From assembly GCA_963675595.2 (NCBI GenBank), contig CAXXLZ010000002.1, positions 640,001 through 704,000 of the forward strand: a DNA stretch of 64,000 bases. Direction: 5' to 3'. A program made the position numbers and the translations under genes. The stretch comes from Thermodesulfobacteriota bacterium (GTDB taxonomy: Bacteria; Desulfobacterota; Desulfarculia; JACQYL01). Of this stretch, positions 9,946 through 31,315 are shown one piece after another. Within the stretch, counting starts at the first letter, position 1; each line of letters begins with the position of its first letter. The notes under the pieces were generated by a model that saw only the letters and a program-made list of their open reading frames with translations, ran no database searches and had not been told where the DNA came from.

Positions 9946-11499
9946 TTATTCCGAATCCGCCGGTGCACCGGCGGAGCCGATGCCCACGCTGATTTCCTCA
10001 GCGCCCGTTCCACTCGGTGCCGCCCGGACTTCGGACCGACATGCACGTTCCAGCGCTTCCGCCTCACGGGGATCCGGTGTTGAAGGCCATTTGCCGACCC
10101 AGTCGAGCATCTCGCGGAACTTCTCCACGAGACGACGGTTGAGGGTCCGATACGGTTCGGCGTCCGTAGCCTCCCGCCCCCACCACAAGCAGTTTTCCCG
10201 GTCCCCCATCTTCCTGAGAACGTCCAGGCACAAACGACGCGCAGCCCCGGACAGCCAGCGAACCCTTGGATCGTCGTAAAACAACTCTCCTTCGAAGCCC
10301 GCCACTCCCTTGGGTCTCAGCTTACCCTCGGCCTTGGCCTGCTCATAAAGGCGTGTACCTTTCAACGCGATTTGATCGTGATAGAGAAGATTGGCCGTAC
10401 GCCCCAGGCGATCCAGCAGCCCGGCTTCCATCAGAAAGTTCAGGTTCTCCTCGATCTGCGCGAGGGAACTCGTCCGTTCGAACATGATGAAACCGACCTC
10501 CGGTTCCAGACCCGCGTTTCTCACCGTTTCCACGGCCTTCAAGTTGTCCGAGGTGTCGGTGTTCTTGCCCAAGCGTTCCAGCACCCGCCGACTGCCGCTT
10601 TCCAGCCCGATGAGCAGCGAGGTGAGGCCGCAGTCCGCCAGCTCCTGCATGACTTCCGGCGTGAGGTCGTCGGCACGGGTTTCCATTCCCCATGTGACGC
10701 CCGGACTTGCGAGCATTCGAGCGATGCGCATGCCTCGTTCCCGCCCTCGTCGTCCGGGTCCGAAAAAATTCGGGTCCACGAAGTAGAAGTCCCTTTTCCC
10801 GGCTTGCTTCAGATTCGTGATTTCATGGATCACTCCTTCGGGACTTCGACCCCGCCACAAGGTCTTTCCTCCATTCAGAGCGGGAATCAGACAAAAGGAA
10901 CAGCCGTTGTAGCACCCGCGAGAGGCCAGAACGCTCACCGTGTCTTCCGAATCCAGCCCGGGACGCACCGGTTCGGGCAGACGGTCCAGGACGGGCGGCG
11001 GGGTCCCGATCCCGTCGAGGCAGGGTTCCCCGTTCTTCCTTCCCGCACAACCGGGTCCCTCTGGGGAAAGACCGGACAAAATCCTCCGGACGGCTTCAAT
11101 CGCCGTAAGCTCGGGTTCCCCCACCCAGATCAGGTCCACCGCGTCATAGGCCTCCAACAACTCTTTCCACACAAGGCTCGGAAAGAAGCCGAAAAGGCAA
11201 ACGACGCCCCCATATCCCCCGCTTTTCAGGTCCTCCAAAAAGCGGAACAACAACGGCGTATGCTCCCAGAAATAGACCGCGTGCACCGCGAGAATCACGG
11301 GATTGAGCCGCAATACGGTTTCAAGGACTTCGGAGAAGCCCATCCGACGAGCGTCCATCAGATCGACGTCGAATCCCGCTTCCCGCAAAGCCGAGCACGT
11401 ATACCCGGCCATGAGACAGGACCAGAGCGGTGTATTGGCGATGTCGTTGAACCGTTCGGGTGAGGGCAACCTCGGATGTTCGAGCACCAGGACGTCCAT
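9946..11499 (-). CDS. cobalamin-binding radical SAM protein (putative BzaE-type benzimidazole methylase)
   Basis: N-terminal B12-binding-like domain; SRGCYNGCSFC CxxxCxxC motif; IGLESGS; position in the bza operon. Confidence 0.8.
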   Translation of the reverse strand: MDVLVLEHPRLPSPERFNDIANTPLWSCLMAGYTCSALREAGFDVDLMDARRMGFSEVLETVLRLNPVILAVHAVYFWEHTPLLFRFLEDLKSGGYGGVVCLFGFFPSLVWKELLEAYDAVDLIWVGEPELTAIEAVRRILSGLSPEGPGCAGRKNGEPCLDGIGTPPPVLDRLPEPVRPGLDSEDTVSVLASRGCYNGCSFCLIPALNGGKTLWRGRSPEGVIHEITNLKQAGKRDFYFVDPNFFGPGRRGRERGMRIARMLASPGVTWGMETRADDLTPEVMQELADCGLTSLLIGLESGSRRVLERLGKNTDTSDNLKAVETVRNAGLEPEVGFIMFERTSSLAQIEENLNFLMEAGLLDRLGRTANLLYHDQIALKGTRLYEQAKAEGKLRPKGVAGFEGELFYDDPRVRWLSGAARRLCLDVLRKMGDRENCLWWGREATDAEPYRTLNRRLVEKFREMLDWVGKWPSTPDPREAEALERACRSEVRAAPSGTGAEEISVGIGSAGAPADSE

Positions 11500-11514
11500 T
11501 CCGTTAACTCCTTC

Positions 11515-12840
11515 CTAACCACATGCCCGCTCCAAACCGTCGAACGAGGCGATGTCCTCCAGGGCGAGTGCATTCAACTCGTGGCGAAGACCGTCGTAGG
11601 GCGGCGGATTATAATAAGCCGGATAGAGCAGGTCTTTTCGTGCATCCCACAGCCCTTCGGCCGATAGTCGACGGGTCAGGGCGGTTCCGGGCAGAACGCG
11701 CAGGTTGTTGAACACAAAGGCCGCCGGGTTGCCGGCCCGTCGATGTTCCGCGCAGAGTCGTCCCACCAGTTCCCTGGTGTGTCGTACGGTCCGTGCGGTT
11801 TCTCCCGGAAGGTTGCACAAAAAATGGTGGACCGTGACGATACCGCTGGCCGCGGCCAAGCCGGCGGCCTGGATGACCCGGTCCATGTCGGTTGCTTTGT
11901 TCAACAGGGCCAAGGCCTCGGGAGACGCTCCATCCGCCGAAAAGTAGATCGCGTTAAGACCGGCGCGACCATAGAGTTTCAGGCAGGACGGACGAAGCGC
12001 GTCCTCGCGAAAGAAGCCCGTCCATCCCACCTGTAGGTCTCTACGGAGGATTTCCTCGCATATGGCGTCCAGATGGTGGGCGGGCTCGTTCACCACGGGA
12101 TCCGTGAAGTGAAAGAGCCGCACACCGAATCTACTGTGAGCCTCGAACATCTCTTCCACCACGACCTCGGGCTCTCTCAGCCTGAGTCCGCGCCCCTGCA
12201 ATTCGGGGTAAAGGCAATAGGAGCAGGCGTGAGGACACCCGCGTTTCCCCTCGATGCCCATGAACGCCACATAGCTGTTGCGTGCGGAATAGTCGCCGGG
12301 AGGGAACAGGTCCCAGTCCGGCAGCGACCATCTGCCGGTTTGCGAACGGCGAGCCCAGGAATCCATGGTTTGCCCGGCGCCGTCACGCGTCAACACGCCG
12401 GGAAGTCCTTCGGCCTGATCCAAACGTTCAAGAAGGTCGGGAAAGACGTCTTCGCCTTCGCCTCGAACCCCCAGGTCCACCTCGGGCAACTCGCGCATCA
12501 GGCGCCGTGCGAACAGGGAAAAGCCGGAACCGCCCAGCACGATCGTCGCACGGGGAGCGTAGCGCTTGACCAAAGTCAGGGAGGCTTTCAGTTGAGGCAC
12601 GAATGAATGCAGCATGCCGGCCAAAGGATCCAGGTTTCGAAAAGAGACGCCCACCACGTCGGGCCGGAACTCTTCGAGGCTTCGCCGTAACACGGGCCAG
12701 GGAAAGGAATGGAGGTTCATGTCCAATGCCCCGACGGTGTGATCGCCCTTCAAGGAAGCGGCGATGCGTGCCAGGCCCAAAGGGTAGACCAGTTCGCCGC
12801 CTTCCATCCGTGATATGGCCTGCAACAACAGAATTCGCAT
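11515..12840 (-). CDS. cobalamin-binding radical SAM protein (putative BzaD-type)
   Basis: YPLGL..IAA, VLGGSGFS, GEGE, KRGCPHACSYC motifs; lies downstream of bzaC. Confidence 0.8.
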   Translation of the reverse strand: MRILLLQAISRMEGGELVYPLGLARIAASLKGDHTVGALDMNLHSFPWPVLRRSLEEFRPDVVGVSFRNLDPLAGMLHSFVPQLKASLTLVKRYAPRATIVLGGSGFSLFARRLMRELPEVDLGVRGEGEDVFPDLLERLDQAEGLPGVLTRDGAGQTMDSWARRSQTGRWSLPDWDLFPPGDYSARNSYVAFMGIEGKRGCPHACSYCLYPELQGRGLRLREPEVVVEEMFEAHSRFGVRLFHFTDPVVNEPAHHLDAICEEILRRDLQVGWTGFFREDALRPSCLKLYGRAGLNAIYFSADGASPEALALLNKATDMDRVIQAAGLAAASGIVTVHHFLCNLPGETARTVRHTRELVGRLCAEHRRAGNPAAFVFNNLRVLPGTALTRRLSAEGLWDARKDLLYPAYYNPPPYDGLRHELNALALEDIASFDGLERACG

Positions 12841-16484: not shown

Positions 16485-17798
16485 TCAGGCTTTGGCCGAA
16501 GCGCACAGAGCATCCTGGAAAAGTTCCATGCTTCCCTTGTTGGCGCAGAACTTTCCGCACATGGTGCAGGAAGTCAGGTCTTCGGGAGATCGCTCCATTC
16601 GGATGGCCCGGGCATCTTCCGCGAAAAGCGCAAGGTCGAACTGCTTTTCCCAGTCGGAGTCTCTCCTGGCCTTGCTCATGGCCAAGTCCCGTTGTCTTCC
16701 TCGTTCCGGATATTTGGCCGTGTCCCCGATGTACGCCGCCACGCGAGCCGCTTTGACTCCTTCCACCACGTCCTTTTCGTTGGGAAGCGCCAAGTGTTCT
16801 GCGGGAGTAATGTAGCAGATGAGGTCCGCGCCGAAACGCGCGCTCTGAGCCGCGCCGATGGCGGCGGTCACATGGTCCCAGCCCGCCGTCACATCGCTGG
16901 GAATGGGACCCAACATGTAGTAGGGAGCGTGGTTGCTCATCTGTTTTTGCAGGATGATGTTGGCCTCGATCTGATCCAGAGGCACATGGCCCGGCCCTTC
17001 CACCATCATTTGGCATCCCATGGCGCAACCGATCTCCGCCAATTCGCAATTGATGAGCAGTTCCTGAACCATGGCCCGGTCGAAGGAATCGTGAATGGCG
17101 CCGGCCCTTAGACCGTTACCCAAAGACAGCACCACGTCGTATTTCTTCAGGATTTCCACCACCCGATCGAACTTCTCATACAGGGGGTTTTCGCGGTTAT
17201 TCCGCTTCATCCACGCCACCATACTGGTGCCGCCCTTGCTCACAAGTCCTCCGTAGCGATAGCCCTGCTTCTCAAGCCGCTCGATGGTGTAGCGATTGAT
17301 ACCGCAATGGATGGCCATGAAGGCGAGACCGTCGGCGCACTGCGCTTCAATGAGGTCGAAAAGCAGCTCCTCATCCAGTTTGTTGGGGTCGCCGTACTTG
17401 TGTGCCGCCTCACAAAAGGCCTGGTAGAGCGGGACGTTTCCCACGGGGATTTGGACCGCTGCCAGGACCCCTCGCCGAATCCGGTCCAGGTCTCCTCCCA
17501 CGGAGAGTTCCATGAGGGTATCCGCTCCCGCGTTCTCCGCGGCCACGGCTTTGCGGACCTCGGCGTCCAGGTCCACGATGTCCGTGGAGGTACCGATGCT
17601 GGCGTTGATCTTGGTTCGGAGCCCGAGGCCGATGCCCACGGGTTTGGGGGGGTGATTGAGGTTGAAGGGAATCACCACTCGGCCGGCGGCCGTCAGTTCG
17701 CGGATGCTCTCGGCATCGAGCCCCTCCGCCGCGGCGATTTCCTTCATCTGCGGGGTTATGACGCCCTTCTTGGCGTATTCCACCTGCGTTGCCACCAT
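16485..17798 (-). CDS. bzaF: ThiC-family radical SAM enzyme, most likely 5-hydroxybenzimidazole synthase BzaF
   Basis: ThiC motifs TKINASIGTS, GADTLMELS, VEGPGHVP, YITPAEHL, CTMCGKFC; the B12 riboswitch and cobT context favour BzaF over ThiC; GGAGGAG RBS. Confidence 0.8.
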   Translation of the reverse strand: MVATQVEYAKKGVITPQMKEIAAAEGLDAESIRELTAAGRVVIPFNLNHPPKPVGIGLGLRTKINASIGTSTDIVDLDAEVRKAVAAENAGADTLMELSVGGDLDRIRRGVLAAVQIPVGNVPLYQAFCEAAHKYGDPNKLDEELLFDLIEAQCADGLAFMAIHCGINRYTIERLEKQGYRYGGLVSKGGTSMVAWMKRNNRENPLYEKFDRVVEILKKYDVVLSLGNGLRAGAIHDSFDRAMVQELLINCELAEIGCAMGCQMMVEGPGHVPLDQIEANIILQKQMSNHAPYYMLGPIPSDVTAGWDHVTAAIGAAQSARFGADLICYITPAEHLALPNEKDVVEGVKAARVAAYIGDTAKYPERGRQRDLAMSKARRDSDWEKQFDLALFAEDARAIRMERSPEDLTSCTMCGKFCANKGSMELFQDALCASAKA

Positions 17799-17907
17799 TC
17801 TCCTCCTTTTCTTTAGAAGAATCGGTTCAAGCCGGCGGGTCGCCCGTCCGAGACAAAAAAAATCCTCGGACGCGGAACGCCCAAGGATTTGCCATCTCCT
17901 GGTAACG

Positions 17908-18080
17908 CCGACTGACGGCAGGTCTTCTGACTCTTGGATCATCCTACTTCCCGCGCCTTCCCACTCCATTGACATGAAGCAGTGACATTCTGCGGGTTTC
18001 GTCCCCAATCACAGCGGCGGGTCCGTACCGGATTTTCGCCGGTTTCCCCATTAAGGCCTTACGGCCGCCGATCAGTCGCC
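17908..18080 (-). ncRNA. cobalamin riboswitch
   Basis: Minus strand reads TTAATGGGGAAACCGGCGAAAATCCGGTACGGACCCGCCGCTGTGA...GTCACTG...TGGGAAGG...AGTCAGAAGACCTGCC (B12 box). Confidence 0.93.
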
Positions 18081-18182
18081 CTATTCAATTGTGCGGAGAA
18101 AGTTAGTCCGTACCCACCTTTCCAGTCAAGTGAAAAACGACCGGCTTCAATCCTCGGTACGACACGGCCGCCCCGAAGCGGC

Positions 18183-18983
18183 TCAATTCCGCCTCGAAAT
18201 TCCGTGTTCGTCGAGCAGTCGATCGAAACTTTGCCTGGCATGTTGATACAACGCCAGATCGAGTTGGTTGCGTTCAAGAATGAGCCTGGGTACCACGTCG
18301 AAGTCGATGGACTGGAATACTTCTTTCTTCACTTCGGATACCGCCGCGTTCATACGTCCCGTGGACTCGACATCGGAGAACCCCAGAATCCTTTTCATAA
18401 GCTCAAGGGAACGGGGATATTCCTCCATCAGGCCGATACAGGAAAAATGGCCGTCCAGATGATGAATCGCCCGGTTCAGGTCCGCCGGCTCAAGCTTGGG
18501 CCGAAAATCCGGGGTTCCGTCCTCCGTGCAAAGCAACCGTACCTGGCAGTTCTCGACCTCCACCGTGAGGTCCGACTGAACGAACTCTTCGATGGGCATC
18601 GGCTTTTCGGGGTTCCGGTGGACTTCAGAATAAAGGTAATGATTGGACCAAGTCCTGGCGTGAATATAAAAAGAAATCACTCGATCCACCGGATGACGGA
18701 GAAAAGTAACATAGGAACATCGTTCTCCGAAACGCTTGTGCCAACCGAAGGAAATATGGCCTTCAATACAGTCATACTTGCGAAGCAGGTCCGGGGGCAG
18801 CCGCTTGAGTCCGTTGACCGGATCGTCGTAAGTCGCCGTAAAAATTCGTTCCTCGTTGATGTTCTTCCGAATTACGGCACTGAATGTTGTTCCACCCGTC
18901 TTGGGTATATGAAGGAAGATGAGTTTCCGGCCGGGATTCAGACGTCCCAATACACAATTCTTAAGTCTCTGGAAGTAATTCAT
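18183..18983 (-). CDS. sulfotransferase family 2 protein
   Basis: 5'-PSB motif FLHIPKTGGTT, 3'-PB motif TFLRHPVDRVISFY, C-terminal N.LD..LY. Confidence 0.85.
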   Translation of the reverse strand: MNYFQRLKNCVLGRLNPGRKLIFLHIPKTGGTTFSAVIRKNINEERIFTATYDDPVNGLKRLPPDLLRKYDCIEGHISFGWHKRFGERCSYVTFLRHPVDRVISFYIHARTWSNHYLYSEVHRNPEKPMPIEEFVQSDLTVEVENCQVRLLCTEDGTPDFRPKLEPADLNRAIHHLDGHFSCIGLMEEYPRSLELMKRILGFSDVESTGRMNAAVSEVKKEVFQSIDFDVVPRLILERNQLDLALYQHARQSFDRLLDEHGISRRN

Positions 18984-20311: not shown

Positions 20312-23300
20312 CTACGATGTTCTCCTTCGCCGTAAGCGTGAAAGGGCCGCCACAGCCGCCAGAATCATCAGGACGGCGGCGCCCCGGGTGGTGAGGGTGG
20401 GGACGTGCGAAATCCGGGAATACGCCTCTGCGCCGGAGGATGTGTCGGGCGCGCAGGGGCCGCTCGGGTCCGTAATCGTTGTGTCGACTGCGTCGGTGTC
20501 GTAGGGCCCCCCTTCGGTCAGTTGAATGGTGATTTTGGTCTTATCGGGCACAGTGTCATGATCCACGGTCGTGGCAATGTCTTCCCATGCGCCGGTGTTT
20601 TTGTTTTCGTCGAAATAGCCCGTTATCGAAGCGTCCCTGGGAGTGAATACATCAATGGTTACCTTCTGGCCGGCCGTGACGCCGTGAACCTCGAAACTGA
20701 AGGCGCCGAAGGGCATTTGGAGATTGGAAGGCGCACCCACTGCGGTCGGAGAGAAGGCCGAAACGTTTTGAAGACTGATTCCTTCGTTGGCCCGGCAATC
20801 GAAGGTAACATATCCGGAGTCGTCATGGGTCGGCAGGGATGTGACATCGACCTGGTCTTGGTCCGGGATACCATCTCCGTTCCCGTCACCGGTACCGCCG
20901 CCCGGGGTAGGCACATTGGCCTCCGTTCCCGGAGCTACGCCGTCATTGTCGTCCGAGTCTCCGTTGAGGGTCAGGTCATAGGGATTTTCGTCGTCGTCAT
21001 TGTTGTCAATGGAGATGACGGCGGTTTTGTCGCCTGCGGACGTGGGGCTGAAGCGCACCGTAAAGTCGGTGGAACCGGACGCGGCCACGGGTGACGTGGG
21101 TTGCGACCGGATGCTGAATTGATCGGAGTCCGCGCCGCCCACCGAGAGGGGAGTGGTAAATGTCAGATTCGAGGTTCCGGTGTTTTCAATGGTAAACACC
21201 ACGTCCATATCCGTACCTGTAACCCGGCTTCCGAAGTCGTGCGCGCCGCCGTCCGTTATGGGGTTGATTCCCTGCTTGAGGGCGATTTCGGGCGCGGTCC
21301 CTTTACCGTTGAGGGTCAGGTCATAGGGATTTTCGTCGTCGTCATTGTTGTCAATGGAGATGACGGCGGTTTTGTCGCCTGCGGACGTGGGGCTGAAGCG
21401 CACCGTAAAGTCGGTGGAACCGGACCCGGCCACGGGTGACGTGGGTTGCGACCGGATGCTGAATTGATCGGAGTCCGCGCCGCCCACCGAAAGGGGAGTG
21501 GTAAATGTCAGATTCGAGGTTCCGGTGTTTTCAATGGTAAACACCACGTCCGTATCCGTACCTGTAACCCGGCTTCCGAAGTCGTGCGCGCCGCCGTCCG
21601 CTATGGGGTTGATTCCCTGCTTGAGGGTGATTTCGGGCGCGGTCCCTTTACCGTTGAGGGTCAGGTCATAAGGATTTTCGTCGTCGTCATTGTTGTCAAT
21701 GGAGATAACGGCGGTCTTGTCGCCTGTGGACGTGGGGCTGAAGCGCACCGTAAAGTCGGTGGAACCGGACGCGGCCACGGGTGACGTGGGTTGCGACCGG
21801 ATGCTGAATTGATCGGAGTCCGCGCCGCCCACCGAGAGGGGAGTGGTAAATGTCAGATTCGAGGTTCCGGTGTTTTCAATGGTAAACACCACGTCCGTAT
21901 CCGTACCTGTAACCCGGCTTCCGAAGTCGTGCGCGCCGCCGTCCGCTATGGGGTTGATTCCCTGCTTGAGACCCATTTCCGGTGGAGGAAGCTCGGAATA
22001 AGCACCAATGCTGATGGGACTTTCGGGTTCGATCTCAGCCCCACGCTGGTCATAGTAATTGCCTCCCGAAGTGGTGGCGCCGTTCCAAACACCGTTTCCC
22101 GAGTCGGCATATGGAATGGCATCAAGGGCAATACTGCCGCTTTCCAATGCCAGAGTTTGGGTGGGGCCGCCGTTGTCGGCCAATGTCTGGGTGGCTTTGC
22201 CGCTTCCGAAAAGATTCTCCATGCCGGAATAGATATTTGTGCTGTTGGTGAAGGTTTTGCCTGCCCCGGTTGTATCGCCGTTCTGCACGTAAACGATATT
22301 ATATCCCATGTCGTACAGAGTACCATATCCCACGTAGTAATAGTCCTCATCAGAATTCCCGGCTATAATCGTATTCCGTACGGTCATTGTGGAGCGAGGG
22401 GTACCAATGTTTTGATAGAAATACACTCCTCTTCCATAATTTGTTGCAGTATTTCCTGTTATTGTACAGTTCTCTATAGTAGAATAGATCGCTTTGAATG
22501 TCTGACCATAGGCTGCAACACCTCCTCCCCCGCTATTTCCGGCGGTGTTGTTACATATAGTTGATCTTCTGATGACTAAGTCTACGGAAGAAGTGCTTAG
22601 TTCGGCATTGACGATAGTATATATACCGTGTCCCGATTGGATTCCCGTATTGTTGTTTATGGTACACGCATCCACGCTCAAGTTGGAATTTTGGGCAAAT
22701 ACGCCTGAAGCACTGTATTGCGTGACGTTTTGGGAGACCGTGCAGTCCGTCATAGTGGCGGTGGACAGGTCGACGAACAGGCCTCCGACTTGATAGGTTG
22801 CCGTATTCCCTTTCAGGTCCGTTTGATCAAGATGAACGGTGCAGCCGGTGGCGTAGATGCCGCCCCCTTTATAGGACTTGGAGTCTGAAATCACGGAATT
22901 GTTGATGTTCACCGTTCCGGCGGAAATATAGACCGCGCCGCCATATCCGTTTTCAGTATCCCCATTTCCCGATATATCTCCGCCCTTGATCGTCATGTTG
23001 TCGAGCGTGACGGTTTTATCCGCGCCACTGATATGGAACACACGAAACGCGGACGCTCCGGGCGTCGTCACCTGCACGGTCACCGGGTTGGCGTTGCCCG
23101 TGTTGGCACCGTCTATGGTCAGACTTTTCGTGATTGCAAGCTCCGAAAGGATGGTGATGGTTTCATTTCCCGATGCCAGGTTGAAGGTGATGGCATCGTC
23201 TTCCGCGGCATCGGCGATGGCTTGACGCAGGGACCCTGCGCCGGAGTCTGCGTTGCCGGTCACCACGTGTTCGGCGGCGAACGCGGGAAGTATCGGCAAC

Positions 23301-23365
23301 AGGCAACAGCAAAGGGTACAAACGATGCGGATACTGATTCTTAAGCACGGATTGGCAACAATCAT
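20312..23365 (-). CDS. large surface protein: signal peptide, beta-helix-like region with choice-of-anchor-Q-like motif, three Ig-like repeats, IPTL-CTERM-like tail
   Basis: DSGAGSLRQAI; N/G-rich parallel beta-helix repeats; LADNGGPTQTLAL..GS.A.DA; three 115-aa repeats; GDGNGDG.PD; tail VPTL-hydrophobic-RLRRRR. Confidence 0.85.
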   Translation of the reverse strand: MIVANPCLRISIRIVCTLCCCLLPILPAFAAEHVVTGNADSGAGSLRQAIADAAEDDAITFNLASGNETITILSELAITKSLTIDGANTGNANPVTVQVTTPGASAFRVFHISGADKTVTLDNMTIKGGDISGNGDTENGYGGAVYISAGTVNINNSVISDSKSYKGGGIYATGCTVHLDQTDLKGNTATYQVGGLFVDLSTATMTDCTVSQNVTQYSASGVFAQNSNLSVDACTINNNTGIQSGHGIYTIVNAELSTSSVDLVIRRSTICNNTAGNSGGGGVAAYGQTFKAIYSTIENCTITGNTATNYGRGVYFYQNIGTPRSTMTVRNTIIAGNSDEDYYYVGYGTLYDMGYNIVYVQNGDTTGAGKTFTNSTNIYSGMENLFGSGKATQTLADNGGPTQTLALESGSIALDAIPYADSGNGVWNGATTSGGNYYDQRGAEIEPESPISIGAYSELPPPEMGLKQGINPIADGGAHDFGSRVTGTDTDVVFTIENTGTSNLTFTTPLSVGGADSDQFSIRSQPTSPVAASGSTDFTVRFSPTSTGDKTAVISIDNNDDDENPYDLTLNGKGTAPEITLKQGINPIADGGAHDFGSRVTGTDTDVVFTIENTGTSNLTFTTPLSVGGADSDQFSIRSQPTSPVAGSGSTDFTVRFSPTSAGDKTAVISIDNNDDDENPYDLTLNGKGTAPEIALKQGINPITDGGAHDFGSRVTGTDMDVVFTIENTGTSNLTFTTPLSVGGADSDQFSIRSQPTSPVAASGSTDFTVRFSPTSAGDKTAVISIDNNDDDENPYDLTLNGDSDDNDGVAPGTEANVPTPGGGTGDGNGDGIPDQDQVDVTSLPTHDDSGYVTFDCRANEGISLQNVSAFSPTAVGAPSNLQMPFGAFSFEVHGVTAGQKVTIDVFTPRDASITGYFDENKNTGAWEDIATTVDHDTVPDKTKITIQLTEGGPYDTDAVDTTITDPSGPCAPDTSSGAEAYSRISHVPTLTTRGAAVLMILAAVAALSRLRRRRTS
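20961..21970. repeat. intragenic tandem repeat, about 3 x 345 bp, near identical
   Basis: CCGTTGAGGGTCAGGTCATA recurs at 20961, 21306 and 21651. Confidence 0.95.
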
Positions 23366-23599
23366 GAAGAAACCTCTTTTTCCATTGTCATTTCAGATGC
23401 CTCGTTTGGTCGCGAGACGCTCGACAGGCTCCACATGTGCTCTTTGAAGGCCCGAAAGGTACTTGAAGCCGCTCTAAGCACTCCCAATGCGATCTCTGCC
23501 CGGCTTGAAAAGTTCTTCACGTACATTTCAGAAATACCTCTCCTACCGGAATCCCGCAACCCGTTTTTGAGATCATGCGTCTTCAATGCCGCCGGCCGA

Positions 23600-23685
23600 C
23601 GGATCCATCCGTGATTGCGGCTTGACTTTGAAGCGGTCACTACGATACAAAAAATTAAGACGTATTGTTTCGCAGACATTCATAG
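23600..23685 (+). repeat. ~85-bp diverged direct repeat, copy B, in a divergent promoter region
   Basis: Aligns with 19728-19812 with scattered substitutions and one indel. Confidence 0.85.
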
Positions 23686-23756
23686 GTCGGCGGCTGAAGG
23701 ATGATATTTCCAAGCCGTACTCAGCTTACACGCACATTCGCAGATAGGAATCGACC

Positions 23757-24281
23757 ATGCAGGATACGCCCCGGACCAAGTCTACGCCGGATGAAAACAT
23801 CAGTCGTCGCAAGATACTCAAAGCGGTTGCCGCTCTTGGAGGGGCATTTGCCGGAACCGCCCTGGTACCCGGGAAATGGTCGTCTCCGGTCGTTGACTTG
23901 GGAGTCGTGCCGGCCCATGCGCAGGCCAATTCAGACCCTCTGGAGCTTATCGGAGAATTGGAGATTCATGAAGCCTCTCCCGACGTATTCGACGAGATAG
24001 CACCTCTGGACAACGCGATCTCCTATTCGGCTCAATGCGAATACAAGGATCCTCTCCGATCATTGACCTCCGCCAACACCACGGCTACCGGCAAGACCAA
24101 CTGCAGCGCCAGTGTCCCCACCAGCGTGAGCTATGTCTCTCCCGAACGGGCCTCTCAAGGCTATATCGGCTTCCTGTTCCAGACCGCGCTGTGCAATCTG
24201 ACGTCCACCGAATTCTGTGTGAAGATCAATTCCGGCAGTCGTTACAGCAATGAGAAATGCGCCCTCATCACGCATGAATGA
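23757..24281 (+). CDS. Tat-signal exported protein with RiPP-leader-like motif (candidate modification substrate)
   Basis: SRRKILK twin-arginine motif, hydrophobic region, KWSSPVVDLGVVPAHAQA; Ser/Thr-rich mature region with five Cys. Confidence 0.75.
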   Translation: MQDTPRTKSTPDENISRRKILKAVAALGGAFAGTALVPGKWSSPVVDLGVVPAHAQANSDPLELIGELEIHEASPDVFDEIAPLDNAISYSAQCEYKDPLRSLTSANTTATGKTNCSASVPTSVSYVSPERASQGYIGFLFQTALCNLTSTEFCVKINSGSRYSNEKCALITHE

Positions 24282-24365
24282 CGCCTCGTTTGTCCAAAGT
24301 CCGGGACCGGGTCCATTCGTGAACCTCCGGCTTCTCTCGTAAGGGACAAGTAGGGCAGGCGGCGA

Positions 24366-27300
24366 ATGGCGAAAATCGTCCTGTATACCTCCGGAACATT
24401 GGGAGATCACCTGCCGTTCATCGCTCTGGGTCGGGCGTTGGCGGAAGGCGGCCATGAGGTGCGCTTGGCCGCCAACAAAGCCATGCACTCCCATGTTCGG
24501 CGATCCGGTCTTGAGGCCGTCTCCCTGGGAGAGGAAGACTTAGGCCCACAAGAAGCCCGGCGTGACGCCTGGGCCTGGGACTTCTGGAAGTGTCCCGATC
24601 CGAGTTCCCATCCGCAAGCTCCTTCAGTCCCCTTCGAAAGCTACATGGTACAGGTGCACAATCTGCTGGAATTGTGCAAGGGAGCGGATATCCTGATTTC
24701 CACCGCCATCCGGCTGCAAGGTTTCATTGTCGCCCGTGCCCTCAAAATGCCCTGGCTTACCGCCTCACTGAACCCCTACACTTTCTGGGCGCCCGCCACG
24801 CCCAAGCAGGCACGAGATCAGTACCAACTTCGTCAAAAGGAATACCGCCGTTTCAGCGTAGTCGCGAACTTGGCCTTTGAGGAATTGGGCGTGGATGAAC
24901 GCGTCGGGGCCTGGTCGCCCGGCTGGCTCTATGCACGCCACATACTGCTCGCCGCCGGCGCTCATTTCGGCAAACCCGACCTCGATCAATTTCAGCCCAA
25001 CACCAGCATAGATATGACCGGATTCTGGTTTTACCAGGACCCCCGATGGTCGGAATGGAGACCGGATGAGGACCTGCTGCGGGTGTGCGAACCGGCGGAT
25101 CCGAACCGGAAGCCCATTGTTTTGTCTTTCAGCAGCCAACCCCTGCTGGAAGCGGAAAGCATCCTACAACGGCACGTTCGGGCGGCCGCCGCTCTGAATC
25201 GCCCTCTCGTGATCCAGCGTGGCTGGGCCGACTTCTCGGAATCCCAATTGCCGCCGGACGTGGACTCCGGGAACGTACTGTTTACCGATTTCATCCCCCA
25301 CGACTGGCTTTTTGCCCGGGCCGCCTGCACAATCCAGCATGGCGGCATCGGATCCATCGCCCGCGCACTGGCCCATGGCTGTCCCGTTCTAGTGGAACCT
25401 TTCGGCAACGATCAATTATTCAACGCAAACCTGGTTGAGAGGCTCGGTGTGGGAGCCGCACTCCATCCGTACGAAAGCGAGATCGAAGACCTGGTGGATG
25501 CCGTGCGGAACAAAGTGCTCACGCCCGACTGTCGGCACCGGGCAAAGACTTTGGGGGAGAAGATCAAGACCGAACACGGCCTGGAAACCGCCTGTGAAAT
25601 GATCGAGCGCTATCTCGGGCGTATCGGCCCCGACGGCGACCTCCCGAAGATATACGGACGCTTCGCTCCGCCCCTCGGCCGAAGGCCGCGACGCCCCATG
25701 AGCGCGGGAACCGACATTCAAGGCGGAGCCGTCTCAACGGTTGCGCCCACCGATGAGACCAAGAACGCCATTCCAAAAATCATCCATCAGACTTGGCAAA
25801 ACCACAACCTACCGCAGGACATGGCCGCCTGGCAGCGCACCTGGCTGAAGCATCACCCGGATTGGACGTATTACCTGTGGACGGATGAGGATAAACGCCG
25901 ATTCCTGAATGATCACTATTCCTGGTTCCTGCCTGTGTACGACGGGTATCCCGAGGAGATCATGCGGGTCGACGCCGTGCGATACTTTCTACTCCACCAT
26001 TACGGCGGGGTTTACGTAGACCTCGACTTCGAATGTTTCCGTCCTTTGGAGCCTCTTCTATCCGGCAAGACATTGTTTTTCGGCCTTGAACCCGAGGAAC
26101 ACGCCAGGCTTCAATCCACGGACCGCCACCGCGTCAGCTGGATCGTGTGCAACGCGTTCATGGCCTCGGTACCCGGACATCCTTTCTGGGAGCATTCGTT
26201 CAAGCAATTGATCGCTTATCACAAAGCCCCCGGAGTACTGGACGCAACAGGTCCTTTCTTTCTGACCCGGACCTGCCGAACCTACGCGAATCAGTCCGAA
26301 ATTCACCTCGAACCCCCGGAAACGCTGTACCCGATCCACAACCGACAGAAATGGGACAACCTGCCGGCCGAGGAACGGGAGCGCATCCGTGGAACCGCGT
26401 ATGGTGTTCATCATTGGAGCGGCGTTTGGTGGCGTCCAATCGTCGCGCAACAAGCCAATCAGGCTTCCGTGTTATTGGCCGACAAAGGCATGCAACTGGC
26501 CCAGGCCACCGCGGACCTCGAAGGCTGCCGCGCGTCTCTCTCACAATCGAGCGCCCCGCCGCTCATCTCCTGCCTGATGGTGACCCGAAATCGCCCGCAT
26601 TTGGCACAACGGGCGATCACCTGCTTTCAAAGGCAAACCTACCCTCAAAGAGAGTTGGTCATTGTGGACGACAGTCCGGATGACGCCCTCCAAGTCCGGG
26701 TCGACCGATTGCAGGATGAGCGCATCCGCTACCTGCGCCTGCTTCCCGGAGGCGCATCGCTCGGTGAGCTGCGCAACATTGCCGTTTGGAAGGCGGCCGG
26801 CGAGTATGTCGCCCAATGGGACGACGACGATCTCTCCGACCCCCTGCGGCTGGAAAACCAGATGGCCCTGATTCGGGCTTATCAGGTCGAAGCCTGCATG
26901 CTTGCCCGCCAAATTCTCTGGTGGCCTTCGAGACGCCGCTTGGCCGTCTCGACGCCTCGTATCTGGGAAGGCTCCTTTGTCTGCCGGCGAAAGGCTCTGC
27001 CTCCCTATCCTCATCAACGCAAGGGAGAGGACACCCCGGTCATCAACCGAATCGTCTCGGAGGAGAGGGTCGTTCTTCTGAATCTCCCCCAAATGTATGT
27101 GTACGTTTTTCACGGTGAAAACACTTTCGACGAAAGCCATTGGGAGAAGCTGTGGGCCGCCGCGGACGAATGGTATGAAGGCGATCATTACGACATCCGG
27201 ATACGGGAATTGGAAGAGCGCCTCAATTTGGACCTGAGTGGAAACGGGGAGCCTCCGACAACCGAGGCGTCCTCTCCGCGAGTCCCCTCTTCTTCCGAAG

Positions 27301-28181
27301 CTCCGGCCGTTGGAGAGACGGACGAGAGCCGACCGGCCCCCGGACCGCTGATGGAAGCGGAGGAAGCGGGTCCCCCGCACCCCATAAGCTCTCCACCCTC
27401 CCCCGAAAATCGACCTGCGGTGCTCATCCTCGTCCCCGTCAAGGATGCCGAGCCTTACCTGCCGTCCTTCCTGGACGGATTGGATGCCCTGACCTATCCC
27501 CCGAGGCGGCTGTCCCTCGCTTTTCTGGAGGGCGACAGCACGGACGACACGTATGGACAGGTCCAAAGGCTGCTGCCCAAACTGAGGGAAAGGTATGCCG
27601 GAGTGGCGCTCTATAAAAGAGACTACGCCTACCGCGTCGACAAGCCGCGCTGGGAACCCGGCGAGCAGATCAAACGCCGATCAATTTTGGCTGGAAGCCG
27701 CAATTATCTACTGTCGCGCGCCCTGGGCGAGGAGGACTGGGTGCTTTGGATGGACGTGGACCTGGCGCGATGGCCCAAAGACGTCATTGAGCGACTGCTG
27801 GCCCCCGGCAAGGAAATCGTGGTTCCCAACTGCCTCCGTCTGGGAAGCGGCGCCACCTTCGACATGAACAGCTTCAAACTCAAACCAAATGCCGAAAACC
27901 TGGATTGGGATTCCCATTTGATCAACGGCATTCTTCAGCCGCCGGCCGGTTACGGGCGACTTTATCTGAACGATCTGCGCGAGCATTCCATTGTCGAGCT
28001 CGACGCCGTGGGCGGGACCATGCTGCTGGTAAAGGCGGACCTGCACCGCGAGGGACTGGTCTTTCCGACTTTCCCCTACAAGCGACACATTGAAACCGAG
28101 GGACTGGCCATGATGGCCCGGGATATGGGCTATTCGTGCTGGGGCCTGCCGAACCTGGAAATCCACCACCCCCCAACCTAA
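24366..28181 (+). CDS. four-domain glycosyltransferase (GT1/GT28-like + GT32 + GT2 + Anp1/GT62-like)
   Basis: GT.GDH.PF...HGGIGS...PFGNDQ; IPKIIHQTW...YGGVYVDLD; ISCLMVTRNR...DDS...WDDDD; WVLWMDVD...ELDAVGGTMLLVKADLHREG..FP...ETEGLAMMA..MG...WGLPN. Confidence 0.88.
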   Translation: MAKIVLYTSGTLGDHLPFIALGRALAEGGHEVRLAANKAMHSHVRRSGLEAVSLGEEDLGPQEARRDAWAWDFWKCPDPSSHPQAPSVPFESYMVQVHNLLELCKGADILISTAIRLQGFIVARALKMPWLTASLNPYTFWAPATPKQARDQYQLRQKEYRRFSVVANLAFEELGVDERVGAWSPGWLYARHILLAAGAHFGKPDLDQFQPNTSIDMTGFWFYQDPRWSEWRPDEDLLRVCEPADPNRKPIVLSFSSQPLLEAESILQRHVRAAAALNRPLVIQRGWADFSESQLPPDVDSGNVLFTDFIPHDWLFARAACTIQHGGIGSIARALAHGCPVLVEPFGNDQLFNANLVERLGVGAALHPYESEIEDLVDAVRNKVLTPDCRHRAKTLGEKIKTEHGLETACEMIERYLGRIGPDGDLPKIYGRFAPPLGRRPRRPMSAGTDIQGGAVSTVAPTDETKNAIPKIIHQTWQNHNLPQDMAAWQRTWLKHHPDWTYYLWTDEDKRRFLNDHYSWFLPVYDGYPEEIMRVDAVRYFLLHHYGGVYVDLDFECFRPLEPLLSGKTLFFGLEPEEHARLQSTDRHRVSWIVCNAFMASVPGHPFWEHSFKQLIAYHKAPGVLDATGPFFLTRTCRTYANQSEIHLEPPETLYPIHNRQKWDNLPAEERERIRGTAYGVHHWSGVWWRPIVAQQANQASVLLADKGMQLAQATADLEGCRASLSQSSAPPLISCLMVTRNRPHLAQRAITCFQRQTYPQRELVIVDDSPDDALQVRVDRLQDERIRYLRLLPGGASLGELRNIAVWKAAGEYVAQWDDDDLSDPLRLENQMALIRAYQVEACMLARQILWWPSRRRLAVSTPRIWEGSFVCRRKALPPYPHQRKGEDTPVINRIVSEERVVLLNLPQMYVYVFHGENTFDESHWEKLWAAADEWYEGDHYDIRIRELEERLNLDLSGNGEPPTTEASSPRVPSSSEAPAVGETDESRPAPGPLMEAEEAGPPHPISSPPSPENRPAVLILVPVKDAEPYLPSFLDGLDALTYPPRRLSLAFLEGDSTDDTYGQVQRLLPKLRERYAGVALYKRDYAYRVDKPRWEPGEQIKRRSILAGSRNYLLSRALGEEDWVLWMDVDLARWPKDVIERLLAPGKEIVVPNCLRLGSGATFDMNSFKLKPNAENLDWDSHLINGILQPPAGYGRLYLNDLREHSIVELDAVGGTMLLVKADLHREGLVFPTFPYKRHIETEGLAMMARDMGYSCWGLPNLEIHHPPT

Positions 28182-28190
28182 GGTGCTTTG

Positions 28191-28511
28191 ATGGAGACGA
28201 CGAACAATCCCGGCGGTCACCACGTACGAGACGACGACTATCCCACTCGGGAAAGCGACTTCACGCTCGAACAGCTGGACGGCGAGCTGCTTCTTTACCA
28301 CCCCACGGAGACCACCATTCTTTATCTCAACCAGACCGCTTCGATGATCTGGGGACTCTGCGACGGCAGCAGGAACGTGCGTCGGATCATCCAACTGCTC
28401 ATCGAGGCCTATCCCGATGGCGCTGAGGCCATCCCTTCGGAAGTGACCTCCACGCTGGAGAAATTCCTCGAAGCCGGCAGTATCCGTTTGGAGAACGAGC
28501 CAAAAGATTGA
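28191..28511 (+). CDS. PqqD-family RiPP recognition element (peptide chaperone)
   Basis: LDGELLLY......LNQTASMIW.LCDG......I...L...Y.......V...L..F...G pattern. Confidence 0.88.
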   Translation: METTNNPGGHHVRDDDYPTRESDFTLEQLDGELLLYHPTETTILYLNQTASMIWGLCDGSRNVRRIIQLLIEAYPDGAEAIPSEVTSTLEKFLEAGSIRLENEPKD

Positions 28512-28737
28512 AGGAACCGTGGGCTCGCTTTCTTTCTCAAGGGATTTCGTCCAAAATTCGTAACTCCCGGTCCTCTCCGCCCCGAGGGGATGCCGGATGT
28601 CAAGATCACGGAGCTTCGCCTGTGGATCCGGCGGTACTACGGAGTGCAATCGTCGGTCGGGATCGGTGTCGAAGGATGAACATACCCCACACGAGATGGA
28701 ATAAATCAAAGGACCGGTCAGTGAACCCGGAGAGGCC

Positions 28738-29601
28738 ATGAGATCGCGATGGGTACGATTTGCGGGAGTCATCCTCCGAATCGACTACGAAGGTGAAGCC
28801 GCTTCGCGCCTTGTGGACGTCCTTTATCGTCATCTCCCCGATGCTTCGGTTGCCGGCCGATTCCAGGCCCCCCATGTCGCGTATCGATTGATCGGCCACG
28901 ATGAAACCGGCGAACTGTGTCTCTTCATCGGGCAGGAAACCGAGGTGCGCTTCACCGAGCCGAGCGACATGGCGGCCTATTTGATGCATCAAACCTCCTA
29001 CGATCCGGCCTATCACTGCAAGGCCGGAATCATGCTCCACAGCGCCTGCATTTGCCGCCACAGGCGAGGCCTGCTGCTGCCCGGCGCTTCCGGCAGCGGA
29101 AAGACCACCCTCAGCGCTCGACTACTAAGCAGCGGATTCGATTTTCTGAGCGACGAACTGATTTTTGTCGGCCATGGAACCAACGAAGGCCAAGGGCTCA
29201 CGCTGCCCTTCAATTTCAAACCCTCCGCCCGGCCCTTGTGGGAAACCGCCTTCGGCATTCGACCTTCCGACCCGGCCATACTGAGCAACTCCGATTTGGA
29301 TCTCGTGCCGCCGGACCTGTTGAAAGGCGGCTCCACGGTCGAACAATCCACCCTGCACGCGGTCGTGTTCCCACACTTCACTCCCGAAGCAAAGAACGGC
29401 TTGCCCGAGCTGAAGCCCATGTCCAAAGCGCGGGCCGGTCTCAGACTCATGGAAGTGCTTCTTAACGCGCGCAATCTGCCGGGACACGGCTTCCCGGAGA
29501 TCAGCCGTCTGGCGCGGGACCTGCCCGCATACGAAATGGTTTATGGGGGGTTCGACGGAGTCGAACGGGCCGTCGGCAGTCTCCTTCCAACGGAAGGTTG
29601 A
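28738..29601 (+). CDS. HPr kinase-related kinase
   Basis: LHSACI...GLLLPGASGSGKTT...FLSDE, the HprK-like His/P-loop/DE signature; next to PqqD. Confidence 0.8.
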   Translation: MRSRWVRFAGVILRIDYEGEAASRLVDVLYRHLPDASVAGRFQAPHVAYRLIGHDETGELCLFIGQETEVRFTEPSDMAAYLMHQTSYDPAYHCKAGIMLHSACICRHRRGLLLPGASGSGKTTLSARLLSSGFDFLSDELIFVGHGTNEGQGLTLPFNFKPSARPLWETAFGIRPSDPAILSNSDLDLVPPDLLKGGSTVEQSTLHAVVFPHFTPEAKNGLPELKPMSKARAGLRLMEVLLNARNLPGHGFPEISRLARDLPAYEMVYGGFDGVERAVGSLLPTEG

Positions 29602-29706
29602 ACACCGCCGCCGTCTTTGTTCAACCCGTGTGAGGACAAGGGTCCGGCCGGCAACTCAAAATCGTCTGATCGGGGGTAAACCGAACCCCGACGGCCGCCC
29701 GGACCA

Positions 29707-30849
29707 TCACGATTCCAGTGCACCCTGCACAAGACGACGCCCTATTCTTCCGGTCATATGTAAGGGGTGGATCAGGCAACGGTGGGGCCATGCGCTCCTG
29801 TTCGGACCCAACCCGTGGTAAAGTCTCAGCCACCAGTCGGATGGAAAAAACAGCTCCTTGTAAGAACGGAAGGCTCCCAGCCGCCTTACTACTTCCTTCC
29901 AGGGTGGAGAGCAGTCACGGAGGTCGGGCGTCATCGGTGGTCCGTCGGAAAAGCCGAGCAAATGCCTCAACTCATCCGGCAAAGGCCAACTCCGGTCGAG
30001 CAGTTCGAGCGTGTTCACTACCAGAGGCGACTCCTCCGCCGTCTTTGTCCAATCAATCCGACGGTAATAGCGCCGAGCCGTGAGCACAATGTCCAGCAAC
30101 CAGATCAGGGGAATCTTGAATACGGCATGGTCACACAAGTGGTGGCAAAGGTGCCACAGCATCCATTCCGGAGGCAGGGTTCGGGCGGGGACCCCACCCC
30201 GGGAAAGCTCGAAGTTCAAGGCGCGGTCCGGGCGACGATCCGGTACACGGCTACCGGGCACCTGCGGACGGGAAAGGCTGTGATGCAACTCGACCACCAC
30301 CTTCAACCCGTTCACCTCACATTGAAGCTCGGGAAGGTGTCTTTCGCGGTGTAAGCCGCCCAAACCATGTTCCAGCGGAAAGACATCGATACCGATGCCG
30401 GATAAGACCTCTTTGGCCTGCTCCAGTTGGGACGGATGAATCAACAGATCCAGATCGCTCATGGGCCGTAAATGCGGGTGATCGTAGACCAGATGCCCCA
30501 GTGCCGCACCCTTCAGCAGAAGAACATCGAGTCCCACCTCTGCGGCCGGCCTCAGAATGCGCCTCAGCACCGTGTTTTGCGCTTCGGACAAATCCCGCCG
30601 CCGCAAGTAGACCCCCTGCAAAGCGAGCCGAAGTTCGGGCTTCAGCTCCGCCTTCAGGTGCCGCACCAAATGATAGAGCAGGGCCCCCAATCCGTGCCTT
30701 TCGGCAACGCTTAGAAAGGCCACGGGGTCCACTTGATTCAGGCCGGAAACCAAGGCTTCCAAAGCCTGCTCCGGGGGCGAATCGAGCGGCACCAATCCTG
30801 CGGCCGTTATCAGCAGTTCCTCATGCGTTCGGCGAATATCATCGTGCAA
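29707..30849 (-). CDS. nucleotidyltransferase family protein (NTP_transf_5-like)
   Basis: LLLKGAAL...Y....RPMSDLDLL, VELHH, H...H and WLLD motifs; TTG start uncertain. Confidence 0.85.
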   Translation of the reverse strand: MHDDIRRTHEELLITAAGLVPLDSPPEQALEALVSGLNQVDPVAFLSVAERHGLGALLYHLVRHLKAELKPELRLALQGVYLRRRDLSEAQNTVLRRILRPAAEVGLDVLLLKGAALGHLVYDHPHLRPMSDLDLLIHPSQLEQAKEVLSGIGIDVFPLEHGLGGLHRERHLPELQCEVNGLKVVVELHHSLSRPQVPGSRVPDRRPDRALNFELSRGGVPARTLPPEWMLWHLCHHLCDHAVFKIPLIWLLDIVLTARRYYRRIDWTKTAEESPLVVNTLELLDRSWPLPDELRHLLGFSDGPPMTPDLRDCSPPWKEVVRRLGAFRSYKELFFPSDWWLRLYHGLGPNRSAWPHRCLIHPLHMTGRIGRRLVQGALES

Positions 30850-31315
30850 AGATGCGATCTCCGTGCGTGCAGGGATTGCGCTCCGAGGGACCCGGCAGGC
30901 TGCCGCAACCGGCTTTTTTCAACGAGCGGATAGAGTCGCGGATGGTCCTCGCGCTCCTTCCAACCTGGACTCGAAAAGGCGCACTTTGTGAACGGCCGGT
31001 ATCTCGGGCATCTTCAAGCCTTGCCGATCGGTGAGCCGACTATGGGCGAAAGCGAAGCATCTCTCGGGAAGACCGCCGGGGCCCGTGCCGAGATTTCAAT
31101 ACTTCTTAGACCGGCTCACTCTTGTCTGCAAACGCAAAATACTCAAGGCGAAAGCGTCTACTGCGGTTTGAGGGGGTCCAGGCTCAATTCGGTTCCGGAT
31201 TCGCTGAGCCCGCGATCCGAATCCCCGAGTGTTTTGGGAGGGTGAGCCGCGACGGCCGCGGCAGGAGAAAGGAAAAGGAAGGGAACAAAGGAAAGGATAC
31301 GAACAAGGGATGCGC

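Follow-up and report, generated by a model that had tools for sequence, protein, structure and literature searches.

The leader gene and its linkage to enzyme genes

The stretch of Thermodesulfobacteriota DNA analyzed here (the window: 64,000 nucleotides, positions 640,001 to 704,000 of contig CAXXLZ010000002.1) carries, at 23757-24281, a gene for a protein of 174 amino acids (aa) with a composite N-terminal leader. Beside it lie genes for a glycosyltransferase, for a PqqD-family recognition element of peptides that are ribosomally synthesized and modified post-translationally (RiPP recognition element, RRE), for an HprK-related kinase and for a nucleotidyltransferase. We describe the leader, its association with these enzyme genes, and the case for the 174-aa protein as their substrate. 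The features of the cluster are as follows.

23757..24281, forward strand: precursor (client) gene, an open reading frame (ORF) of 174 aa with an ATG start, predicted to comprise a 55-aa composite leader and a 119-aa exported domain
23802..23822, forward strand: twin-arginine motif S16-K22 (TIGR01409 match)
23877..23894, forward strand: W41-x-x-P44-x-V46, candidate RRE-type docking motif within the c-region, from the invariance of W and P across leaders
23913..23921, forward strand: A53-H54-A55, AxA-type signal peptidase I site, with cleavage predicted after base 23921
23922..24278, forward strand: exported domain, a seven-strand beta-sandwich as predicted by an AlphaFold2 model
23931..23933, forward strand: S59 (W+18), candidate phospho-acceptor, fourth residue past the predicted cleavage
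24366..28181, forward strand: 1271-aa four-domain glycosyltransferase (GT1/EryCIII-like, DXD Gly_transf_sug, GT2 and Anp1 domains, from Pfam)
28188..28511, forward strand: PqqD-family RRE (PF05402, 43.3 bits against a cut-off of 23.4)
28738..29601, forward strand: HprK-related P-loop kinase (TIGR04352, 76.5 bits, E 1.8e-21, under the cut-off of 200)
29707..30849, reverse strand: PF14907 (NTP_transf_5) nucleotidyltransferase (132.8 bits), convergent with the operon

The open frame of the leader gene spans 177 aa, with only three sense codons, in frame, 5' of the ATG. As the first-pass annotation of this DNA had described, the leader combines a twin-arginine motif, a long c-region containing WxxPxV, and an AHA site. 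A variable n-region precedes S16-R17-R18-K19-I20-L21-K22 and an Ala/Gly-rich h-region, which is followed by a 16-residue stretch that carries K40-W41-S-S-P44-V-V46 and P52-A53-H54-A55 and then by Q56. The NCBIfam model for twin-arginine translocation (Tat) signals, TIGR01409, matched residues 15-39 with 19.9 bits (cut-off 16.7); it was the only NCBIfam model to match the 174-aa protein, and no Pfam family did. By the -3/-1 rule for signal peptidase I sites, the leader would be cleaved by that enzyme after A55. No paralogue of the leader was found in the window's own genome by protein search or by six-frame motif search, in which the motif was present once. A promoter and terminator scan of 23300-31200 gave counts equal to or under those of shuffled sequences.

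The RRE protein reached no NCBIfam cut-off. In the kinase, G116, G121 and K122 were invariant in 22 sequences and are read as Walker-A (P-loop) residues. The kinase sequence alone matched nothing significantly among Protein Data Bank (PDB) sequences; its AlphaFold2 model, with a predicted local distance difference test score (pLDDT) of 93.1, was matched by Foldseek to phosphoenolpyruvate carboxykinase (2.7e-6) and to HPr kinase/phosphatase 3tqf_B (1.5e-5). The Anp1 and DXD Gly_transf_sug domains of the glycosyltransferase, which we take to be those of fungal Golgi mannan synthesis, are presumably unusual in one bacterial polypeptide. The genes flanking the cluster were unrelated to it (aldehyde ferredoxin oxidoreductase, alcohol dehydrogenase, an amino acid uptake set of the ATP-binding cassette (ABC) type, a ThiC-family gene and others).

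A word-based search yielded only two close homologues, with 49% and 42% identity and with leaders nearly identical to that of the window. A profile built from these two and the window protein was searched against 1.84 billion cluster representatives. It matched 1808 of them at E<=1e-3; the stricter limits of <=1e-10 and <=1e-30 left 118 and 3. The 150 best matches for the most part covered profile positions of about 7-60 only and were 150-200 aa in length. The expectation that the leader would be shared while the exported parts vary was thus borne out, the likeness being mostly confined to the leader. Where the source gave these proteins a name (3 of 16 listed entries), it was "hypothetical protein". 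Pfam, run on 136 family members, recognized nothing beyond the TAT signal (PF10518, in 10 of the 136 at E<=1e-3) and two single-member matches.

Conservation was assessed in 151 proteins from the profile search, numbered relative to the Trp (W41 in the window). The profile that picked these proteins already held most of the conserved residues, and the shares are to that extent circular; position +17 is exempt, because the profile, whose three query rows read N, D and T at this point, did not impose Ser or Thr. Upstream of the Trp, the shares were 94% for R(-24), 97% for R(-23), 92% for L(-20), 90% for K(-19) and 96% for P(-3). From the Trp onward they were 100% for W(0), 100% for P(+3), 91% for V/I(+5), 97% for G(+8), 97% for P(+11), 86% for A(+12), 99% for H(+13), 100% for A(+14), 93% for Q(+15) and 94% for S/T(+17). 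The -3 position of the signal peptidase site (+12) was Ala in 86% and Val in 9%. The leaders were fixed in length, with no insertion or deletion from -26 to +17.

Leader loci were gathered with the pattern GV[LM]PAHAQx[TSN], taken from a 26-sequence alignment; a scan of a single genome for each species gave 65 loci. Their hosts were mostly Anaerolineae and other Chloroflexota; six loci came from one Desulfarculaceae genome and one from Desulfobacteraceae. At each of the 71 occurrences of the pattern in these loci, the residues 13 and 10 places before the His were W and P. This check is only partly independent, as W and P lie outside the pattern but the loci had been confirmed by tblastn against the query.

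Homologues of the enzyme genes were sought at these loci by tblastn with the window's proteins. PqqD was found at 40 of 65 loci, the HprK-like kinase at 40 and the PF14907 nucleotidyltransferase at 39; 37 loci had all three and 43 had at least one. The enzyme genes were on the strand of the leader gene in 116 of 119 cases, and in the 43 loci with any enzyme the nearest one lay at a median distance of 412 bp. Gene orders included leader-PqqD-kinase-nucleotidyltransferase, leader-nucleotidyltransferase-PqqD-kinase, and arrangements with the enzymes first. Three genomes account for 14 of the 22 loci with no enzyme gene, and these genomes encode the enzymes beside another leader copy or at some other site; several of the remaining loci sit on short contigs. 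A homologue of the four-domain glycosyltransferase, with about 50% identity, occupied the same position between leader gene and enzymes at two of the 65 loci (L014 and L021; in L021 as two adjacent matches). The first-pass annotation had made its reading depend on conservation of WxxP in homologues and on their linkage to PqqD genes. The motif proved invariant (151/151 leaders), and the linkage to PqqD was found and agrees with the distribution across genomes.

That distribution was examined in 246 genomes and is given as counts, because related genomes are not independent. The leader family was present in seven of the eight kinase-positive genomes, and the eighth (G089) had a borderline kinase match only. 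Of the 95 genomes of the window's class, three matched the kinase at E<=1e-10 (G000, G071 and, at a borderline 9e-11, G089), and the leader profile at E<=1e-5 matched only G000 (one match) and G071 (seven matches). In a 151-genome sample of the class to which the genome of locus L003 belongs, the kinase was found in five genomes and the leader in the same five (10, 1, 1, 1 and 3 matches); the other 146 gave two partial leader matches (positions 8-37, 2.8e-6; positions 6-47, 4e-10). The two multi-copy genomes had one kinase match each, against 7 and 10 leader matches, and one enzyme set therefore goes with one to ten leader genes.

An ordinary Tat-exported protein that lies beside the PqqD, kinase and transferase genes by coincidence would fit the failure of Pfam and NCBIfam to assign any family beyond the TAT signal model. 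Such a coincidence is already contradicted by the linkage at 43 of 65 loci on a shared strand and by the co-occurrence over 246 genomes, few of which (8) have the kinase, and we give it hardly any credence. Within the window's class the system is rare, being present in 2 of 95 genomes, and its nearest relatives are from Anaerolineae, with 45-50% identity for the kinase and the glycosyltransferase. This distribution suggests that the lineage of the window may have acquired the system horizontally.

Clustering of the flanking ORFs of the 65 loci revealed no further conserved neighbour, the next family being generic histidine kinases at 17 loci. Neither an asparagine-synthase-like cyclase nor a transglutaminase-like B2 protease was present in the 21 long non-overlapping ORFs between 9.9 and 42.3 kb of the window, and neither family recurred in the 65 loci. 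A dedicated archaeal-type signal peptidase I was likewise absent from the 21 window ORFs and from the recurring families of the 65 loci; the best TIGR02228 match in the window's genome reached 24.2 bits (cut-off 51.85) and lies on another contig. No MsbA-like or other ABC exporter recurred beside the leader genes of the 65 loci, where the sole ABC family (five loci) was an ABC-F type ATPase. The ABC genes near the cluster in the window are a branched-chain amino acid uptake set.

These scans bear on whether the twin-arginine-like leader is an export signal at all, or a cytoplasmic recognition leader that resembles one, with a product that leaves otherwise or stays inside. The RR-x-L-L-K block and the h-region are tighter and more fixed in length than Tat targeting alone requires. 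There are also no Tat genes in the window's gene cluster, TatC being encoded on another contig of the genome (256.8 bits). A leader without an export role is nevertheless very improbable in our view: the window's leader passed the curated TAT signal model, the 151 leaders have basic residues in the c-region together with an AxA site, and no dedicated exporter is conserved, unlike in the linear polyphosphorylated peptide (LPP) family described below. The nearest match of the leader profile among PDB sequences, which was non-significant (E 0.65), was the signal of nitrous-oxide reductase, presumably a Tat substrate.

Docking, acceptor residue and export

The trio of PqqD, HprK-like kinase and PF14907 is widespread outside lasso-peptide clusters; for the form with a Tat leader, the literature that we searched names no substrate. 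Outside lasso peptides, the LPP family of Bacillota alone has been characterized (Popov et al., Nat Commun 2026, PMC13381572). In the main text of that report, the precursors are 35-200 aa long and share a conserved N-terminal YxxPxVLxHQxIxFETxxS motif, while their C-termini vary. Their RRE is LppB (PDB 9x8z), and the kinase LppK adds up to four phosphates to core Ser3, a proven polyphosphorylation site at Y+18. LppS, a signal-peptidase-I-like enzyme, cuts only with LppB presenting the leader and prefers the phosphorylated precursor, and the exporter, LppD, is MsbA-like. The nucleoside triphosphate (NTP) transferase LppN was inactive in a heterologous host, and its authors suspect a partner encoded beyond the core cluster. 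Lasso and LPP RREs are described as binding [Y/W]xxPx[L/V/I/F/A] (PMC13381572).

When the profile of the RRE family was compared with PDB sequences, the best match was the LppB chain 9x8z_B (30.2 bits), followed by PqqD, TbiB1 and TfuB1. N48 is invariant in the RRE family and aligns with N51 of 9x8z_B. By an offset of 18, taken from five matching residues, N51 would correspond to LppB N33, which fixes the Pro kink of the leader.

On binding by the RRE, the third point on which the first-pass annotation had made its reading depend, a predicted complex of the RRE with leader residues 10-64 scored 0.56, which is weak support, and the best of three controls scored 0.00. The runs shared at least 91% of contacts, and the pLDDT of the partner was at least 63. 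Of 157 solved complexes, 116 reached the mark that this prediction passed, as did 2 of 215 mismatched pairs, counts that hold only roughly here as the run used custom alignments; at scores of 0.60 or less, the mark was reached by only 18 of the 157 solved complexes and by both of the passing mismatches. Because structures of RRE-leader complexes have already been solved, likeness to these may be what the pass reflects.

The stretch from the h-region to the mature part (K-W-x-K-P-V-V ... P-A-H-A-Q) might be recognized chiefly by the kinase, by the nucleotidyltransferase or by some peptidase or sorting enzyme, with PqqD binding elsewhere or to a partner enzyme. The conservation of H(+13) and Q(+15), which exceeds what signal peptidase I needs, fits such a reader, as does the report that phosphorylation in the Bsf lasso system was unchanged by a Y/P/L triple mutant (PMC10368454). 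W and P, however, are the two invariant residues of the W-x-x-P element and are spaced to fill two RRE pockets as described for LPP (PMC13381572). The alignment places the RRE's invariant Asn opposite the one with which LppB fixes the Pro kink, the predicted complex cleared its controls, if weakly, and no peptidase is conserved nearby at the 65 loci. On this evidence we consider it decidedly unlikely that the leader is read mainly by other enzymes.

Ser or Thr occupied W+17 in 94% of the 151 leaders, compared with 11-16% at +18 to +21, and 150 of 151 had Ser or Thr within +16 to +18. The window's leader has N at W+17 and S at W+18 (S59). If the leader is cut after A(+14), the W+17 residue would be core residue 3, and its counterpart in the window core residue 4. 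The first-pass annotation had looked for acceptors in the Ser/Thr-rich body with its five Cys. Its composition is as described (16 Ser, 10 Thr and 5 Cys in the 119 aa after A55, or 22% Ser+Thr), and two of the five Cys were invariant among the three closest homologues. Going by the alignments, the best conserved candidate acceptor is instead the Ser/Thr three to four residues past AxA.

An AlphaFold2 model based on a 48-sequence alignment folded residues 61-174, approximately, into a seven-strand beta-sandwich. Mean pLDDT was 86-98 per 10-residue block over residues 61-170 and 85 for 171-174; the leader was of low confidence, with a short helix at 17-26. Foldseek of the exported domain against the PDB gave no match at E<=1e-3. 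With VIA-align, the best Z was 8.3 (archaellin, root-mean-square deviation 3.4, 100 residues aligned), tied with many immunoglobulin-like sandwiches. As modelled, the exported domain is a common beta-sandwich, and its structure matches offer no functional lead.

The exported parts behind the shared leader fall into unrelated types. The largest group, to which the window protein belongs, ends in a G-R-x-S-N loop, and in the 48-sequence subfamily alignment S164 and N165 were at least 90% conserved. Beyond this group, the sequences are unrelated and include glycine-rich domains some 250 aa long. Paralogues within one genome were identical at 18-27 of 41 leader positions, and their exported parts, when of different types, scored 35-53 in local alignment. 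In the Desulfarculaceae genome G071 (L073-L079), at least four proteins that start with the leader are about 300 aa long and have glycine-rich exported domains; the leader also precedes two other proteins, of unrelated type. In the six copies of this genome that could be parsed, the exported part begins Q-x-S directly past the A-H-A site.

The main targets of the enzymes could lie in the exported domain, at the Ser of G-R-x-S-N or in Ser/Thr-rich loops, possibly glycosylated in the window by the four-domain glycosyltransferase. We regard this as unlikely, despite the conservation of S164 and N165, the 22% Ser+Thr of the exported part and the action of paeninodin-type lasso kinases on a C-terminal Ser (PMC8498205). 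G-R-x-S-N is absent from other exported-domain types with the same leader, whereas every type has the junction Ser/Thr, and the domain is predicted with high confidence to be folded. The C-terminal Ser of the loop, considered as a universal acceptor by analogy with paeninodin, was demoted because the other exported-domain types lack that loop.

It is very probable that the 174-aa protein is a substrate of the adjacent enzymes. We further consider it probable that it is the dedicated substrate of the RRE, the kinase and the nucleotidyltransferase, and that its leader joins a Tat signal, an RRE docking element and an AxA site. In the mechanism that we infer, the RRE would bind the W-x-x-P element in the cytoplasm and the kinase would phosphorylate a Ser/Thr just past the cleavage site (S59 here). 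The nucleotidyltransferase, together with the glycosyltransferase in this window, would extend the phosphate. The folded beta-sandwich protein would exit via Tat, and a housekeeping signal peptidase would remove the leader. Tat and the general signal peptidase would in this way stand in for the LppD exporter and the LppS peptidase of LPP. A leader that merges Tat targeting, RRE docking and a signal peptidase site would explain the lack of both a B2 protease and an LppS/LppD pair. The proposal that a signal peptidase substitutes for the lasso B2 protease, made from the window alone, has a precedent in the LPP family (PMC13381572).

Several observations weigh against a dedicated substrate with such a leader. 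The score of the predicted RRE-leader complex lies in the weak band. The RRE might not guide the kinase, given that phosphorylation in the Bsf system did not depend on the YxxPxL residues (PMC10368454). The 65 loci are a subset and not a random sample, having been found with one exact pattern that the window's own leader does not match. Two loci (L013 and L031) have full 10-kb flanks with none of the three enzyme genes, and in G071 a PqqD and HprK pair lies distant from all leader genes, with no nucleotidyltransferase within 10 kb. G089 is kinase-positive without a leader match, and the two genomes with partial leader matches are kinase-negative. The window has Asn where 94% of leaders have Ser/Thr. 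Thr fills the acceptor position in 35% of leaders, and a Ser-to-Thr substitution abolished phosphorylation in LPP (PMC13381572). Finally, TIGR04352, the top NCBIfam match of the window's kinase, stays below the cut-off for HprK-related kinase A.

A more elaborate possibility, which we put forward tentatively and hold to be rather doubtful, is that the Tat signal peptide is itself a RiPP-type leader and the RRE acts as an export checkpoint. Seated on the W-x-x-P element, it would hold the precursor in the cytoplasm while the kinase adds one or more phosphates to the Ser/Thr just past the cleavage site, PF14907 and, in this window, the glycosyltransferase with its fungal-mannan-type domains would build a phosphoglycan on that phosphate, and release through Tat and the general signal peptidase would follow only then, yielding a folded protein phosphoglycosylated at its N-terminus. 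If this were true, it would amount to a bacterial leader-guided phosphoglycosylation of whole proteins, with one enzyme set serving up to ten exported proteins per genome.

Other features of the window

Upstream of the cluster, a ThiC-family radical S-adenosylmethionine (SAM) ORF (PF01964) and a cobalamin riboswitch lie on the reverse strand. The riboswitch is just upstream of the listed 5' end of the ORF and overlaps it, and translation of the ORF probably begins downstream of the riboswitch. The ThiC-family gene may, we presume, serve synthesis of the B12 lower ligand instead of thiamine synthesis. These and the other features outside the cluster are listed below.

9946-12840, reverse strand: two adjacent radical SAM genes, of which only the second (11515-12840) also matches the B12-binding domain
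16485-18008, reverse strand: ThiC-family radical SAM ORF
17900-18088, reverse strand: cobalamin riboswitch (RF00174, 109.3 bits)
18183-18983, reverse strand: sulfotransferase (PF03567), 4.8 kb upstream of the leader gene
20312-23365, reverse strand: 1017-aa exported protein with choice-of-anchor D, U and Q domains, divergent from the leader gene

The 1017-aa protein holds three nearly identical repeats of about 115 aa, seen in the translation. Its C-terminal tail, with V-P-T-L, hydrophobic and Arg-rich, resembles an IPTL-CTERM sorting signal, for which NCBIfam gave no match. Between 19000 and 20300 there is no ORF of at least 150 aa and no Rfam match at or above a gathering score, and G+C is below that of the surroundings (0.516 in the 18-20 kb bin; most bins have 0.57-0.61).

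Sulfotransferases flank some paeninodin-type lasso clusters (PMC8498205). The one in the window was considered as a cluster member and rejected: tblastn found no homologue in the 65 related loci, and it is therefore probably outside the system.

Comparison with known systems

A pairing of a PqqD-family partner with an HprK-related kinase and no known substrate is represented in NCBIfam/TIGRFAMs as the HPr-rel-A system (TIGR04352). At 76.5 bits against the cut-off of 200, the window's kinase is a relative and not a member. Tat signal-peptide chaperones of the TorD/DmsD/NapD type are small cytoplasmic proteins that each bind one Tat substrate until it has matured. They offer a functional analogy only. 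Unlike them, the RRE has the PqqD winged-helix fold, and the maturation would be covalent modification, not cofactor insertion.

The pair of an HPr-kinase homologue and a PF14907-type nucleotidyltransferase is shared with phosphorylated and phosphoglycosylated lasso peptides (paeninodin, pseudomycoidin and Bsf), as are the B1/RRE and the Y/WxxPxL-type leader motif (PMC8498205, PMC10368454). In those accounts, the Bsf kinase polyphosphorylates core Ser3 and the pseudomycoidin transferase adds hexoses to the phosphate, and paeninodin-type kinases act on a C-terminal Ser as noted above. Unlike these lasso clusters as described there, the window has no macrolactam cyclase or B2 among the 21 ORFs scanned, the substrate is a 119-aa folded domain in place of a peptide of about 20 aa, and export is predicted to depend on a built-in signal. 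The lasso likeness noted by the first-pass annotation holds for the WxxPxV element, which resembles the motif bound by RREs. It does not extend to the system as a whole, for which no cyclase was found and which is closer to LPP than to lasso peptides.

With LPP, as characterized in PMC13381572, the system shares a discrete PqqD-type RRE, an HprK-like kinase and an uncharacterized NTP transferase encoded together (37 of 65 loci here). The leader is conserved at the N-terminus with a variable remainder and contains a [Y/W]xxPxV docking motif. A Ser lies about 18 residues past the aromatic residue, at about core position 3 (Ser/Thr at W+17 here; S59 at W+18). Leader removal is of the serine signal-peptidase type (predicted here), with no lasso B2 protease and no cyclase, and a position among glycosyltransferase genes is frequent.

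The system differs from LPP in that its leader opens with a twin-arginine signal and closes with AxA, and in that no dedicated signal-peptidase-I-like peptidase or MsbA-like exporter is conserved nearby. Trp takes the place of Tyr, Thr is permitted at the acceptor position, and the exported parts are folded domains, which can reach several hundred residues. Whereas LPPs are called Bacillota-restricted (PMC13381572), the present system has its hosts in Chloroflexota and Desulfobacterota. The main text of that report contains none of the terms twin-arginine, Tat, signal peptide or Chloroflex, and three of its supplement files do not contain twin-arginine; the supplement lists some Chloroflexota signal peptidases, in other network clusters. 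A literature search, which did not cover subscription journals, found no Tat-leader RRE system.

We read the system as a Tat/signal-peptidase variant of the LPP kind, to which a four-domain glycosyltransferase has been added in this window. To explain their inactive transferase, the LPP authors proposed a partner activity, and this glycosyltransferase is a concrete candidate for it. The comparison suggests a second solution, in which a general export signal also carries the RRE docking motif, a private peptidase and pump are unneeded, and the substrates are whole folded proteins. It further suggests that RiPP-style leader recognition may reach to the modification of proteins, and raises the prospect that such modification is coupled to Tat export.

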